A DNA stretch of 18,908 bases from Capsulimonadales bacterium (GTDB taxonomy: Bacteria; Armatimonadota; Armatimonadia; Armatimonadales; Armatimonadaceae), in the NCBI GenBank assembly GCA_033762295.1, contig JANRLW010000019.1, positions 1-18,908 on the forward strand, written 5' to 3'. Below the pieces are notes generated by a model, which worked only from the letters and a program-made list of their open reading frames with translations, was not told where the DNA came from and did not search any database. Both the position numbers and the translations under genes were made by a program. The first letter of the stretch is position 1. Each line of letters opens with the position of its first letter. Of this stretch, positions 9,212-15,693 are shown piece after piece.

Positions 9212-11176
9212 ATGTCCGCTCTTCTCCGTTTCTCGGCGTCCCTGGCCCTTTTTCTCCTCCTGACCGCGTTTACGGCCGGTCCGGCGACCGCTGACGAACC
9301 GACGATCCGGCTGTTGATCGATGCCCGTTCGCCTGAGCGACAGCGCTTCCCGATCCGCCTCGAGATTCCGGTGAAGCCGGGGAAGGTGGCCCTCGCGTTT
9401 CCCCGATGGCTGCCGGGCACCCACGGTGGCGCCAGCCTCCTCCGGAACGTGGCCGGCCTGACGGTCCGCGCCGGCCAGCAAACCGTCGCCTGGGAACGGG
9501 ACCGGTACGATCCGTTCGTTCTCCGCTGTCATGCCCCGAACCGGTCGGACCGACTTACCGTCACCTTCGAATACCTTCCCGCGAAATCCGACGGAGAGGA
9601 GGTCGCCGTCGGTATCGCGGCCTCGGAAAACGTGGTCATTTTGAACGGCGCCTCCCTCTTCCTTACCCCCGAAGGCGGGCGGATGAGTCGCGTTCGAATC
9701 GCCCCCACCGTGCTTCTCCCGCGGGGCTGGCAGTACGCCACCGCGCTTCCCGCGCAGCAACCGCTCGATGCGATCGGAAAAGTGGAATTTGCGCCGGTCA
9801 GCGCGGAAACGTTCGTTGACTCTCCGATCTTCGCCGGAAAGTACGCCGAGACAGTGCGCCTGGACAAAAACGACGGATCGGAGGTGCCGCACTATCTCTG
9901 CCTTTTTGTCGATGACCCGGCGGTACGGAACCGGGTATTGACTCCGATCTTCCGACAGACCATGCAGCGATTGGTGGCGGAAAGCGGGGCATTGTTCGGC
10001 GCGCGCCACTACCCGGAGTTCCGTTTTCTGCTCGCCGTCACCACGAAACTGCCGGTCTGGGGGTTGGAGCACCACGCGTCAAGCGTCAATTCCCTGCGCC
10101 CGGACGCGTTCGGACCACGCGGAACCCTCGATAACCGGGAGTGGTGGAACCCGAACCTGCTTCCGCACGAATTCGTCCATAGCTGGGTCGGCAAGTATCG
10201 CCGCCCGGAAGGGCTGGTTCAGATGTCCTACGAGACGCCCCCGGCAACGGACCTTCTCTGGGTCTACGAGGGCCTGACCGAGTATCTGGGCGAGTTGCTG
10301 ATGGTCCGAAGCGGATTTCGGGACGCCGAAAAGTGGAAAACGGACTTCTTCCGGCAGACCGTCGACGTTGGACAGGACCGGGGCCGTTTCTGGCAAAGCC
10401 TTCAGGACGCCTCGACGGTCTATCCCTACCTGCACCTGAACGGATCGGGAACGGCATTGAGGCCGAGCAACGCGGTCTACTTTGAGGGACTCCTTCTCTG
10501 GCTCGAAATCGATACGCGCATTCGGACGGGAACCGGCGGTAAAAAATCGCTCGACGACTTCTGCCGACTCTTCTTCGGAGGGACCAACCGGGGTATCGAG
10601 GTTCGGCCCTACCGCCGGGAGGATATTATCGACGCGTTGAACCGGGTCCACGCCGCCAACTGGAAGACATTCCTCGAATCCCGGTTGAACGACCGTGGCA
10701 ACGGCATCCTGACCTCCGGCGCGGAGGCGGCCGGCTGGCAGGTGACGCTCTCGGATGCCGTTCCGGCGGAGCATGTTTCGGCGGCGGAGGTCGATTACCG
10801 CTTCTCCCTCGGGTTTCGCCTGACCGCCGGCGGCGTTCCGTGGGCTATTCGGCCGGATTCCGTCGCCGACCGGGCCGGGATAACGCCGTCGTCCCGCATC
10901 GTCGGTGTCAACGGCAAGCTGTTTTCGCCGTCGGCTTTCCGGGAAGCGGTCCGGGCATCGAAAGGCGTTCCCCCGGTTCCTCCGGAAGTCCTCGTTTTCG
11001 AGGAGGACGCTTATCGGCTCGTTCGTCTACCCTACACCGACGGCGAACGGTTCCCGGTTCCCGTTCGGCTGACGGATCGGCCGGACCTGCTCCCGGCGAT
11101 TCTCGCGCCGCTCACGCCGCCCCCGCCGCTCACGACGCCCCTGGCGCCCCCGGTTCCCTCGCCCCCACCCCGGTGA
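9212..11176 (+). CDS. Secreted M61-family glycyl aminopeptidase (zinc metallopeptidase) with C-terminal PDZ-like domain
   Basis: Signal peptide MSALLRFSASLALFLLLTAFTAGPATA. Motifs PRWLPG, FVDSPI, GLEH, zinc-binding HEFVHSW and downstream LWVYEGLTEY, KSLDDF. PDZ-like SVADRAGITPSSRIVGVNG. Pro-rich tail. Confidence 0.92.
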   Translation: MSALLRFSASLALFLLLTAFTAGPATADEPTIRLLIDARSPERQRFPIRLEIPVKPGKVALAFPRWLPGTHGGASLLRNVAGLTVRAGQQTVAWERDRYDPFVLRCHAPNRSDRLTVTFEYLPAKSDGEEVAVGIAASENVVILNGASLFLTPEGGRMSRVRIAPTVLLPRGWQYATALPAQQPLDAIGKVEFAPVSAETFVDSPIFAGKYAETVRLDKNDGSEVPHYLCLFVDDPAVRNRVLTPIFRQTMQRLVAESGALFGARHYPEFRFLLAVTTKLPVWGLEHHASSVNSLRPDAFGPRGTLDNREWWNPNLLPHEFVHSWVGKYRRPEGLVQMSYETPPATDLLWVYEGLTEYLGELLMVRSGFRDAEKWKTDFFRQTVDVGQDRGRFWQSLQDASTVYPYLHLNGSGTALRPSNAVYFEGLLLWLEIDTRIRTGTGGKKSLDDFCRLFFGGTNRGIEVRPYRREDIIDALNRVHAANWKTFLESRLNDRGNGILTSGAEAAGWQVTLSDAVPAEHVSAAEVDYRFSLGFRLTAGGVPWAIRPDSVADRAGITPSSRIVGVNGKLFSPSAFREAVRASKGVPPVPPEVLVFEEDAYRLVRLPYTDGERFPVPVRLTDRPDLLPAILAPLTPPPPLTTPLAPPVPSPPPR

Positions 11177-11209
11177 TTGCCGGAAATAGCCCCAACGACG
11201 GCTGTCTCT

Positions 11210-11238
11210 TTAACTTCGGGGGCGGTTTGACGTATACT
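11210..11238 (+). promoter_or_regulatory. Putative sigma70 promoter for a leaderless transcript starting at about 11245
   Basis: TTAACT (11210-11215), 17 nt, TATACT (11233-11238) in an AT-richer intergenic patch. A GTG sits 6 nt downstream. Confidence 0.6.
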
Positions 11239-11244
11239 GTTTCC

Positions 11245-11409
11245 GTGACAAAGCGAATTCCCTGGCTGACACCGGCGCGTTCGTACCCCACGATGCGCCA
11301 GATGCTGAAAGGCAAGAATCGAAGCGGACGCCGAAACCGCGCTCCGTGGTACGCCGGTTTTCCCAACCGGGATCACGCCTCCTGGGCACAGACGCTAAGG
11401 CGAAAATAA
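11245..11409 (+). CDS. Putative leaderless 54-aa basic microprotein MTKRIPWLTPARSYPTMRQMLKGKNRSGRRNRAPWYAGFPNRDHASWAQTLRRK
   Basis: GTG at the expected transcription start. Open frame to TAA at 11407-11409, fitting the intergenic gap. About two-thirds of third codon positions are G/C. 14 R/K versus 1 D. It is the 3' end of track ORF 10840..11409. Confidence 0.55.
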   Translation: MTKRIPWLTPARSYPTMRQMLKGKNRSGRRNRAPWYAGFPNRDHASWAQTLRRK

Positions 11410-11503
11410 ATCCGAACGGCGCGGCGCACTCCTTCCGGCGCGTCGGAAATAACGGAAACCTCCGGGCATAAAATTGCTACTTGCAGACAAGGAGAAAAAG
11501 CAA

Positions 11504-11974
11504 ATGCCGGACGTATCCGTTTCCGTCGGGGAAACCCCCGCTTCTACAGGGGAAACCCCCTCAGAGCTACCGCCGTTACCCCCTGCCCTGCGTGCCTTGA
11601 TTGTCGACGATGAAGCCACCACCGTTCTGGTCCTGCGCCGCGCCCTGGAAGACGCCGGGTACGAAGTGGTGGGGCAGGCGAAGGACGGTCGCGAAGGCGT
11701 CGCAGAGGCGATTCGTACCCGCCCGGACCTGATTCTGATGGATTACAGCATGCCCGGCATGGACGGAATCCAGGCGATGCAGGAGATCATGGGGCAGCGC
11801 CCCGTGCCGATCATCATGCTGACGGGCCATAGCGACGAGGAACATATCAACCAGGCGATCGAAGCCGGAGCCAGCACCTACCTCGTGAAGCCGATCAACC
11901 GGGCGCGCCTGTTGCCGGCCATCCGCACCGCGTTCGACGTTTTCACCACCCGGCGTCCCGTGAACCGAACCTGA
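11504..11974 (+). CDS. Single-domain response regulator receiver (PdtaR/AmiR-like REC without output domain), 156 aa
   Basis: AAGGAG at 11489-11494 favours the ATG at 11504. Motifs LIVDDE, phospho-acceptor DLILMDYSMPGMDG, IIMLTG, YLVKP. The protein ends about 20 aa after the KP. Confidence 0.92.
   Translation: MPDVSVSVGETPASTGETPSELPPLPPALRALIVDDEATTVLVLRRALEDAGYEVVGQAKDGREGVAEAIRTRPDLILMDYSMPGMDGIQAMQEIMGQRPVPIIMLTGHSDEEHINQAIEAGASTYLVKPINRARLLPAIRTAFDVFTTRRPVNRT
11528..11560 (+). repeat. Direct repeat GGGGAAACCCCC x2 (21-nt period) in the 5' end of the receiver gene
   Basis: Copies at 11528-11539 and 11549-11560, encoding GETP...GETP. Each copy is self-complementary. Confidence 0.7.
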
Positions 11975-12012: not shown

Positions 12013-15000
12013 TCAGATTTTTCCGTCCGAAAGGTCACCCAGCGCCGTTTCCAGAAGCGCGTACTCGGTTTCCGCCCTTCGGATCAGGGCGGGCGCGTTT
12101 GTGATCGTGCCGGATTTACCCATCTCCTCCAGTCGGGCGCAGACCTCCGCCAGCCGTCGACCGCCCAGGTTGCCCGCCGCCCCCTTGACGCCATGGGCGG
12201 CCTGCGACAGAAGGGACGGGTTAGCGTCGCGCACCGCCTGACGCATCACCTCCAGCCGCGTGGACACCTCCGTCGCCAGGGTCTTCCGAATCTCGGGCAT
12301 CAGATCGGCCAGCGAGCGCAGGTCCTCGTGAAACGCCGGGTCCAGTACCTCACCCGAAACTTCCGGGACCGGATCGTCGTTTGTCGCCCCCGAAGTCGGT
12401 TCCGAAACGGAGGCTTCCGTCTCCTCGCCGGAACCGGTGGCGCGTCGGGAACGGAGCCATCGACCGCAGCGCTCGAGGGCTGCCCTGAGAGCGTCCGGCT
12501 TCACCGGCTTGGCCAGGTAATCGTCCATACCGGCGGCAAAACACGCCTCCTGATCCTCGTGCATTGCGTTGGCCGTGAGAGCGACGATCCGTGGCCGACG
12601 TCCCGCACGGTACCGATGAACGATCCGCCTCGTCGCTTCCAGACCGTCCATCTCCGGCATCTGGACATCCATCAGAATCACGTCGTACGTCTGCCGCTCC
12701 AACGCGCGAAGCACTTCCAGCCCGTTGGCGGCGATATCCGACCGGTAGCCGAATTTCGACAACAACGCCTGCATGAGTTTCTGGTTCACCGTCAGATCCT
12801 CGGCCATCAGAATCCGTAGCGGGAAACGGGCCGCCATCGACGGATCGTACGGCGAAACCGGAACGCGGGCACGCGCACCACCGGAACGCCCGGATATGGC
12901 GCTCACCAGCACATTGTAGAGATGGGACTGCTTGATCGGTTTTGTCAGCATTTCGGCGAACCCCGCCCCCTCGATCTCCGACGGGCGCGCGCCGACCGAA
13001 CTCAACCCGACCAGCGGCATCGGATGGTCCTTGCAGCAAAGACCGATCTCACGGGCCAGCGCGATGCCGTCCATATCGGGCATCTGTATGTCCAGGATCG
13101 CGATATCGAACCGCTCGCCACGGCGGAGACGTTCCAGAGCCTCGGCGGCGGTCGCACACTCGACCGATTCCATGCCCCAGGTCCGCGTCTGCAGGGTCAG
13201 AATCTGCCGGTTGGTCGCGTTGTCGTCGACGATCAGCAGACACAATCCGTCCAGTCCCGGATGGTCGGTCGGGTCGAAACTGGGTAATCCCATCGGTGAA
13301 ACATCGACCGGCAGCGAAACATGGAACGTCGATCCGACCCCGACCTCGCTTTCCGCCCAGATGCGCCCGCCCATCATATCGCTCAGACGCCGACTGATCG
13401 CCAGACCCAACCCCGTTCCGCCGTAACGCCGCGTCGTGGAGGCGTCCACCTGGCTGAACGAACGGAAGAGCCGATCCATGCGCTCCTGCGGAATGCCGAT
13501 CCCGGTATCTCGAACCGCGATACGGAGTTCGTAACGGTTCGCGGACAGCGGAACGCTGTCCAGATTCACCACCACCTCGCCCCGTTCGGTAAATTTCACC
13601 CCGTTGCTCAGCAGGTTGAGGAGAACCTGCCGGACCCGCGTCACGTCTCCGAGGATGACGTTCGGCGTATCGGGCGACATCACGTATCCCAGTTCGAGTC
13701 CCTTTTCGGCGGCCCGTGTCGCGACCAGGTCGAGTGCGGATTCCACACACTCCCGCAGGTCGAACGGCTGACGCTCGATCTCCAGTTGCCCCGCCTCGAT
13801 TTTGGAGAAATCCAGAATGTCGTTGATAATCGTCAGGAGAGCATCGCCGCTATCGCGAATCACCTGCGCGTACTCGCGCTGTTCCTGGTTCAATTCGGTA
13901 TCGAGCAACAGGCCCGTCATTCCGATCACGGCGTTCATCGGCGTCCGAATCTCATGACTCATCGTCGCCAGGAACTCGCTTTTGGCGACCGCCGCCGCTT
14001 CGGCCGCCTCCTTCGCCGTTCTGAGTTCGGACTCGGCTTCGCGCTGATCGGTGATATCGGTATGGACGCCGACCCATTCGCCGATTTCGCCGGACGGTTC
14101 GAAAATCGGAAGGGCGCGAATGGAGAATCGACGGTACTCTCCGTCAAACCGGCGTACTCGATGCTCAAACACGAACATGCGGCGTTCGGCGACCGCCTTA
14201 TTCCACGCGTCGATGGTCGGCTGCGCATCGTCCGGATGCACCGCCTTCGCCCAGCCGTATTCCTGATATTCCTCCGGCGTTTGACCGGTGAAACCGCCCC
14301 AGCCCGGTTGTTCGCCGAGCATCCGACCGTCGGCGGTGTTGGTCCAGAGAATACCTCCCACTGCACGCACCGCGGTCCGGAACCGGGCTTCGCTGGCCTC
14401 CAGAGCGTTCTGGTACCGTCGCTGCTCGGTCACGTCGGTATTGCTTCCGAACCAGCGGACGACCTGATTCTGCGCGTTGCGGATCGGAAGCGCACGGGAA
14501 AGGAACCAGCGGTACTCACCGTTCGCCCCGCGGAGCGGGAAGGAATCCTCCCAGAACACCCCTTCGCGGATGCACCGGGCGAATTTTTCGCGTACGGCAT
14601 CGACATACTCGGGGTGGTGCACCTTCTGCCACCCCCAGCCCTTCATCTCTTCGAGGGTGGTTCCGGTGAAATCGAACCAGCGCTGGTTGTACCAGAAGAT
14701 GGAACCGTCGCCATCGGCCATCCAGGCAAGCTGGGCGATATTATCGGCCAGGTCACGGAACCGTTCCTCGCTCGAACGAAGCGCGTCTTCCGCCTCTCGC
14801 CGCTGCCTCAGTTCCCGCTGCGCCTCCTCGTAAAGCCGCGCATTGTCCATCGCGACGGCCGTTTGCGCGGCGATGCCCGACAGCATCCGTTCATGCCGTT
14901 CATCGAAACGCCCCGGCCGCGCATGCCCGAAAAACAGGCCGCCGATGACGTTTCCATCACGGGAGACAACCGGGACGGCCAGGTAACTGCGGACGGGAAG

Positions 15001-15693
15001 ATGTCCCTCCGGCATCCCGTAATACGGAGGATTCAATCCATAGCGAGGATCACGGGTAATATCGTCACTCCGGACGATCCCCTCGCCGGCGAACGTCGGC
15101 GCAAAAACGTCGGTGTTGCGTGGCATCGGAAATTGCGCGAACCGTTCTCGCGGAACCCCCGAAATGGTGTAGAGGAGCAACACCTCACCCCGTTCGTCGA
15201 ATCCGTTGTAAAAGAAACTGCCGAACTGCGCTCCGACCAGCGAGGTCGCCTCATCGGTGACCAGTTGAACGAGACGATCGCGATCGAGTTCGGCGGAAAG
15301 TAACGCGCCCACACGGTTCAGCGTCTCATTAAGCCGCATCTCCTCCTGCAGGGCCAATTCCGTCCGTTTCCGCTCGCTGACGTCCTGAGCGTAAATGGCG
15401 AGTCCATCGGGCACCGGGTAGGCACGCACTTCCACCCAGAGGTCGGTGCCGGGAATCTGCGTCACCTCGGTCCGGGGCGTCCGCTCCTCCGCCGCCCGCA
15501 GCAATGCGTCCCGGATCGGCGTTTCGTGAACCTCGGGAAACACCTCCCACAGGGAACGGTTCAGCAGATCCCCGCGCGACCTCCCGACCAGTCGCTCCGC
15601 CGGACCGTTGACGTAGATATACCGCCAATCATGTCCGACGATACTGAACGCGTCGGGTATATGGTCAAAGACATCGGTGAGTTGTTGGGGCAT
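12013..15693 (-). CDS. Cytoplasmic hybrid sensor histidine kinase: PAS-GAF-PAS-PAS-HisKA-HATPase-REC-REC-Hpt (1226 aa)
   Basis: H-box [16 protein letters not shown]-box [14 protein letters not shown]1 DTGIGI, G2 [12 protein letters not shown]1 [19 protein letters not shown]2 [15 protein letters not shown]. Hpt [16 protein letters not shown] with [24 protein letters not shown]_3-type [11 protein letters not shown] and [10 protein letters not shown]. No TM segments. Confidence 0.96.

Follow-up and report, generated by a model that had tools for sequence, protein, structure and literature searches.

A conserved short frame between an M61 peptidase gene and a receiver gene in an Armatimonadota genome very probably encodes a basic 54-residue protein, likely from a leaderless start

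The frame at 11245-11409 of the DNA analysed here (the window, a stretch of 18,908 nucleotides from a Capsulimonadales bacterium) is, judging by its conservation, very probably a real protein-coding gene, whose product would be a basic protein of 54 amino acids. The gene likely has its own promoter and a leaderless start in this genome, the mRNA probably beginning at the start codon of the gene. As far as sequence searches define it, the protein is one of a small family without a name, known to date from a few genomes of Armatimonadota and from metagenomes. Taking all parts together, we slightly favour a leaderless gene for a small protein that acts in trans as an accessory binder of polyanions; the binding of nucleic acid that forms part of this proposal is tentative, a reading of the composition of the protein only. 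The elements of the locus are as follows.

9212-11176: M61 peptidase gene (Pfam Peptidase_M61_N and Peptidase_M61).
11199-11229, plus strand: weak hairpin carrying the -35 hexamer in its loop, the counterpart of a strong terminator-like hairpin plus T-run at the homologous loci.
11210-11215, plus strand: -35-like hexamer TTAACT, in the loop of the weak hairpin.
11233-11238, plus strand: candidate -10 hexamer TATACT, placed after a 17-nt spacer from the -35 and followed by GTTTCC (6 nt) and then GTG.
11245-11409, plus strand: predicted coding sequence of the 54-aa basic protein, with GTG at 11245-11247, 54 codons and TAA at 11407-11409.
11504-11974, plus strand: gene of a receiver-only response regulator (Pfam Response_reg, E 4e-31).

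An earlier note on this DNA had described the succession TTAACT-17-TATACT, six nucleotides, GTG 11245, 54 codons and a TAA ending at 11409, and all of these are present in the sequence. A promoter scan of both strands between 10800 and 11900 detected TTAACT-17-TATACT as the sole promoter-like site, against a mean of 0.2 in the shuffled region. As the note had also remarked, the 54-codon frame appears in the ORF list only as the tail of a longer frame, a GTG ORF of 189 aa (10840-11409), the front of which overlaps the M61 peptidase gene in a different frame. Further in-frame start candidates are found 5' of 11245, namely GTG 11173 and TTG 11227. The closest homologues (P0008, P0017, P0019 and P0013) begin with MTK, and the window's GTG-ACA-AAG encodes the same N-terminus, which supports 11245 as the start. 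No Shine-Dalgarno-like tetramer (GGAG, GAGG, AGGA or AAGG) was found in the 20 nt 5' of GTG 11245. The description of the gene as hidden has to be given up: an identical protein of 54 aa already stands in NCBI and NCBI nr, as an unnamed protein.

To define the family, we collected the results of profile and word searches together with cluster members. This gave 16 distinct intact sequences of 50-77 aa, the window's own included, all of which are labelled unnamed or "hypothetical"; the intact homologues were drawn from predicted-protein collections, where broken copies cannot occur. The family has a common order of motifs, YPTLRxLL[RK]G, a Gly/Arg linker, RxP[WF][YF]xG[YF]PxR and a C-terminal [WF]xQxL[KR][KR][KR]. 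In an alignment of ten sequences (A3) the invariant columns are M1, P15, T16, R18, L21, G23, R32, P34, G38 and P40, and the aromatic positions exchange W with F and Y with F. The window protein aligns end to end with a profile E-value of 4e-24 and has the expected residue in all ten invariant columns. Three much longer proteins (705-1802 aa), in each of which 5-27 stretches matched, were set aside, uninspected, as low-complexity matches, and no fused or longer form of the family appeared among 8000 scored candidates, which is weak evidence. We also observed that the 90% cluster of P0010, a family member of 56 aa, includes a protein of 813 aa annotated as "predicted ATPase/class 3 adenylate cyclase" (P0018); this is probably a clustering artefact, and the family motifs were not noticed in its sequence.

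The homologous loci were then compared at the level of DNA and of the six translated frames. When 71 genomes of the order were searched with the protein in six frames, two relatives showed clear matches, G004 (E 1.3e-7) and G007 (E 2.6e-7), all remaining matches having E-values of 0.0026 or worse. The G004 homologue is an ATG ORF of exactly 54 codons. In DNA-level comparisons with 40 relatives, homology was limited to short chance matches. Over 45 ungapped codons the window is identical at 73 of 135 nt (54%) to G004 and, equally, to L043, a family member from a metagenome; frame +1 scores 107 and 106 on the BLOSUM scale in these two comparisons and the other five frames score -7 to 48. Frame +1 is the sole frame open in the window, G004 and L043 alike. 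Conservation of the amino-acid sequence, with frame +1 the only one kept against distant loci, thus bears out the view of the note that this is a genuine protein-coding gene. Within the frame, the G+C content of third codon positions amounts to 0.93 in G004, 0.88 in L043, 0.81 in the C-terminal half of G007 and 0.67 in the window. The note had proposed dN/dS below 1 as a check. Values below 1 were obtained for the window against G004 (0.53) and against L043 (0.41), and for the C-terminal half (27 codons) of G007 against G004 (0.26); the comparison of G004 with L043 gave 0.98, and at these evolutionary distances dN/dS provides weak support for coding.

The note had counted two observations against a gene: stops or frameshifts at homologous loci, and conservation of RNA structure only. 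Regarding the second, the RNA of the frame has no excess structure (z = 0.11 against shuffles) and it is the amino-acid sequence that is conserved. Searches of the region for Rfam families and tRNA yielded none, save a chance miRNA match at E 2.1; with no such match and a fold no better than that of shuffled sequences, a reading of the region as structured RNA is rejected. Regarding the first, the outcome is divided: the frames of G004 and L043 are intact, and that of G007 is broken as assembled, which makes one broken locus among the four loci for which DNA was compared. In G007 the N- and C-terminal motifs lie in different frames and the DNA alignment contains two 1-nt gaps. The convergent PAD gene beside it (locus L011 1623-2850, minus strand) is likewise split, into two ORFs that cover profile positions 194-360 and 15-181; since the adjoining gene is split as well, an assembly error is plausible for the broken copy. 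This contig contains either frame errors or pseudogenes.

The intact window copy has atypical codon usage. On a CAI-like scale it scores 0.518, which places it at the 0.7th percentile among 6372 in-frame chunks with a mean of 0.719 and an sd of 0.073; off-frame chunks average 0.442 and the neighbour genes reach 0.67 and 0.66. Its third-position G+C of 0.67 compares with 0.77-0.78 in the neighbour genes. The contrast is exaggerated by the reference set, to which only ORFs with third-position G+C above 0.7 were admitted. These values would fit an unexpressed or decaying accessory gene, functionless here, within a family that is real elsewhere. The patchy distribution described below, the fact that the locus is unique to this genome and the frame-shifted state of the related G007 copy point the same way. 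Against this, the window frame is intact, it keeps every invariant residue of the family, and its promoter is the best formed among the four loci, so that decay appears decidedly improbable.

To place the candidate start in the context of the genome, we examined the first ATG or GTG codons of 3153 long ORFs with high third-position G+C (whole genome, G000). TANNNT ends 6 nt 5' of the start in 87 of the 3153 and 5 nt 5' in 53, and at every other offset from 0 to 39 it is found 14-36 times, about 24 each. This peak suggests a minority class of leaderless-type genes in the genome, most genes having Shine-Dalgarno tetramers with a peak 7-9 nt 5' of the start. The 87 sites at 6 nt have the consensus GGTAnAAT, the two preceding positions being G in 72% and 64% of them, and lack a clear -35; TATACT recurs among them, and the start codons that follow are ATG in 65 cases and GTG in 22. 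The spacing of 6 nt between TATACT and GTG 11245 is therefore the genome-wide mode. The window gene has the -10 at 6 nt, where 5-8 nt is required of a leaderless start, lacks a Shine-Dalgarno site and has GTG as its first codon, and the leaderless start that the note proposed appears plausible on these grounds. In mycobacteria a GTG at the 5' end suffices for leaderless translation, according to one study (PMC4633059). The small leaderless proteins of mycobacteria treated there resemble the window gene as short ATG or GTG ORFs at the start of the transcript without a Shine-Dalgarno site (PMC4633059); they belong to a different phylum, the start here is predicted from sequence, and no homology is implied. 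A literature search on leaderless genes in Armatimonadetes found nothing relevant.

The upstream region was also compared across the loci. In G004, G007 and L043 the gene is preceded by a strong hairpin flanked by runs of A and T (z = -3.2 to -3.5). Its counterpart in the window is much weaker (z = -1.5 for the 74-nt stretch 11177-11250), but there the hexamers are canonical; a simple terminator scan did not call the window hairpin at 11199-11229. The loop carries TTAACT, TTAGCA or TTAGCG at the homologous loci and TTAACT in the window. After the hairpin the homologues have a T-run, CGCG, then TATTGG, TATACA or TCTAAT, followed by 6, 8 or 10 nt and ATG. By the same scan as was used for the window, none of these three loci has a promoter-like site, TATTGG, TATACA and TCTAAT being without the canonical T or A; in each of them a GGAG, AGGAG or AAGGTG sequence ends 3-4 nt upstream of the ATG. 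A leaderless start is thus not a conserved trait, given the missing canonical promoter and the Shine-Dalgarno-like sites of the homologues, and the leaderless design may be particular to this genome. The claim of the note that the gene has its own promoter accordingly remains likely for the window, where the promoter is well formed and abuts the GTG, and does not extend to the three homologous loci, where no canonical promoter is kept. In a separate observation, the hairpin lies directly 5' of the small gene in all four loci despite different upstream genes (L010 1425-1460 in G004, L011 1420-1455 in G007, L043 440-480 and window 11199-11229); it could serve as an insulating terminator, form an element of the promoter or be bound by a factor.

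The same data allow the gene to be real and yet not leaderless, its transcript coming from the M61 peptidase gene by read-through or from a different promoter, the two hexamers being there by chance or serving as the promoter of the receiver gene. The layout of the three homologous loci agrees with this, and the weak hairpin upstream of the window gene may let read-through pass. Still, the window copy has no Shine-Dalgarno-like tetramer before its GTG, and this GTG lies 69 nt past the stop codon of the peptidase, too far for coupling. In addition, the 6-nt spacing coincides with the genome-wide TANNNT mode, and the GGAG-type sites of the homologues, at 3-4 nt before the ATG, are off this genome's 7-9 nt peak. 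We consider a start other than a leaderless one somewhat unlikely. On the preferred reading, the sigma-70-type promoter would start the transcript at or next to GTG 11245, and the resulting leaderless mRNA would be translated without a Shine-Dalgarno site and would possibly run on into the receiver gene.

The distance from the stop of the small frame to the receiver gene is 95 nt, on the same strand. The simple terminator scan called no terminator-like site between 11409 and 11504, and a hairpin at about 11417-11445, between the two, has no T-run. The receiver gene may therefore be a second cistron of the transcript of the small gene, a suggestion of co-transcription that follows from this layout. 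The receiver gene has an AGGAG of its own 9 nt 5' of its ATG. On the far side, a gene for a 1226-aa hybrid histidine kinase (PAS, GAF, HisKA, HATPase_c, two receivers and Hpt; 12013-15693, minus strand) converges on the receiver-only gene.

Such a position would also suit a cis-acting leader peptide, that is, an upstream ORF controlling the receiver gene, which has the same orientation and no called terminator in between. To evaluate this, the order of genes was compared at the four loci.

Window: M61 peptidase, ORF, receiver.
G004: PilT, ORF, bPH_2 protein.
G007: PilT, ORF, convergent PAD.
L043: IS1 transposase fragment, ORF, enolase.

Downstream of the conserved protein's gene stand unrelated genes (bPH_2 protein, convergent PAD, enolase), the conservation of the amino-acid sequence covers its whole length, which is atypical of attenuator peptides, and the receiver gene carries its own AGGAG. 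Control of the receiver gene by a leader peptide appears very improbable. Since the protein is conserved beside unrelated genes, it would act in trans and not as a leader peptide in cis. At the G004 locus we noticed that the frame of the bPH_2 membrane protein, which follows downstream, overlaps the small gene at its final codons (L010 1611-2174). A link to arginine deiminase was considered and rejected: PAD adjoins the G007 copy, but the PAD of this genome is on another contig (C43).

The distribution of the family is patchy. Clear matches are limited to three of the 71 genomes of the class and three of the 32 genomes of the family. A sample of 401 genomes of the phylum gave two (17 candidates were scored per genome, and G004 lies outside the sample). 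A pattern-limited scan of 185,579 species returned the two relatives and one 11-residue chance match. In metagenomes, a first scan produced 289 pattern matches, none of which was confirmed as family, and in a second scan two of 64 were confirmed, L043 as a family member and L044 as a match of 14 residues. Phages and plasmids gave no match (tblastn with the family member P0006). Partial matches in two further genomes, G010 (E 2e-4 to 6e-4; read in the DNA only) and G047 (E 0.0016), were taken as chance, the G047 match overlapping a 226-aa ORF in another frame; the searches of class, phylum-sample and family genomes gave further weak matches at E 3.7e-4 to 0.05.

PilT identity was used to rank the relatives, as a single-gene proxy of relatedness and not a tree. 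By this measure G010 (91%) and G017, G009 and G003 (86%) are closer to this genome than the carriers G007 (84%) and G004 (82%), and the four closer genomes contain no clear match to the small protein. The PilT orthologue of this genome lies on another contig, without such an ORF after it. Of five relatives checked for the M61 peptidase, only G003 has an orthologue (44% identity), and nothing similar to the small ORF follows it. Patchy presence and changing neighbours give the picture of an accessory, movable gene. A literature search on this small-protein family found nothing.

We next turn to the protein itself. The count of its residues confirmed the composition given in the note, with 14 K+R, 1 D, 0 E, 3 W and 5 P in 54 residues, and no signal peptide was found. 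The AlphaFold2 model has a mean pLDDT of 64 and two short helices only, at residues 17-21 and 44-53, and the protein is, as modelled, largely unstructured. Foldseek with this low-confidence model against the PDB returned no matches. Neither Pfam nor NCBIfam contains a family matching the window protein; the best hit of these libraries among ten members of the family is a chance MACPF match in one of them (E 0.14). A profile search of the PDB, ribosome structures included, gave no chain below E 0.5. The best matches of that search, at A3 positions 19-39, were a segment of the CysN G-domain (E 0.54) and the fungal defensin eurocin (E 0.94), and were taken as chance. The ESM Atlas contains the same sequence, with no usable neighbour and no structure model. 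The note had seen no match to bS22, bL37, bTHX or ArfA, and in Pfam, NCBIfam and the PDB there was indeed none.

Basic chains with conserved aromatics and prolines and a poor fold are typical of small ribosomal proteins. With 14 K+R in 54 residues, conserved aromatics and prolines and little predicted fold, the window protein could thus be a lineage-specific ribosomal or ribosome-associated protein, a tiny basic chain threaded between rRNA helices. It is, however, present in only a few genomes of its family and class, and the relatives nearest by PilT identity gave no clear match. The gene keeps no constant position beside ribosomal or translation genes, its codon usage falls at the low 0.7th percentile, and no PDB chain, those of ribosome structures included, falls below E 0.5 with the profile. 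The patchy distribution, changing context and codon usage make a core ribosomal role unlikely, and we regard a ribosomal protein of this kind as quite improbable. The proteins bS22, bL37 and bTHX are very small, very basic, have little fold of their own and are restricted to particular lineages. The window protein is like them in these traits and differs from them in having no Pfam, NCBIfam or PDB match, a patchy presence within one family and poor codon usage. ArfA, which is made from truncated non-stop mRNA with a 3' hairpin within the frame, is likewise a small basic protein without a hydrophobic segment; unlike ArfA, the window protein has no family match, its frame ends in an ordinary TAA stop and the mRNA of the frame shows no excess structure.

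A cationic protein of about 55 aa with Trp and no signal peptide also calls to mind exported cationic Trp-rich peptides such as the leaderless bacteriocins. These are characterised by an amphipathic, hydrophobic helical bundle and a transporter or immunity gene as neighbour. Here, by contrast, there is no hydrophobic helical core, the model is mostly coil, no ABC transporter or immunity gene adjoins the gene at any of the four loci, and Pfam and NCBIfam gave no match, so that an exported peptide of this type is extremely improbable.

Arginine-rich and RGG-type RNA-binding peptides offer another likeness. A Gly/Arg-rich segment with flanking aromatics is the kind of surface that binds RNA, and the window protein has a Gly/Arg linker after the invariant L-[RK]-G, with aromatic flanks; it resembles these peptides in composition only. 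In the mechanism we favour, the conserved parts would be the helix-prone YPTLRxLL[RK]G, the Gly/Arg linker, the aromatic-proline motif and the basic C-terminal helix. The protein would use its arginines and stacked aromatic residues to bind a polyanion, most likely RNA, and would fold on binding, serving as an accessory factor and not as a core ribosomal protein. The more specific version, an accessory RNA- or ribosome-binding factor that clamps structured RNA, or else an autoregulatory binder of its own upstream hairpin, appears unlikely as it stands.

The protein represents a new small unnamed family of a familiar kind, which lies outside every named family tested. Experimental genetics hardly exists for this phylum, which thereby gains a further conserved small protein without a known family. 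The analysis also provides, as a side result, sequence evidence for a class of leaderless-type genes in an Armatimonadota genome, amounting to about 90 starts above background among 3153 and marked by a GGTAnAAT element placed 5-6 nt ahead of the start codon. Should the protein indeed bind RNA or ribosomes, a new small factor would have been found.
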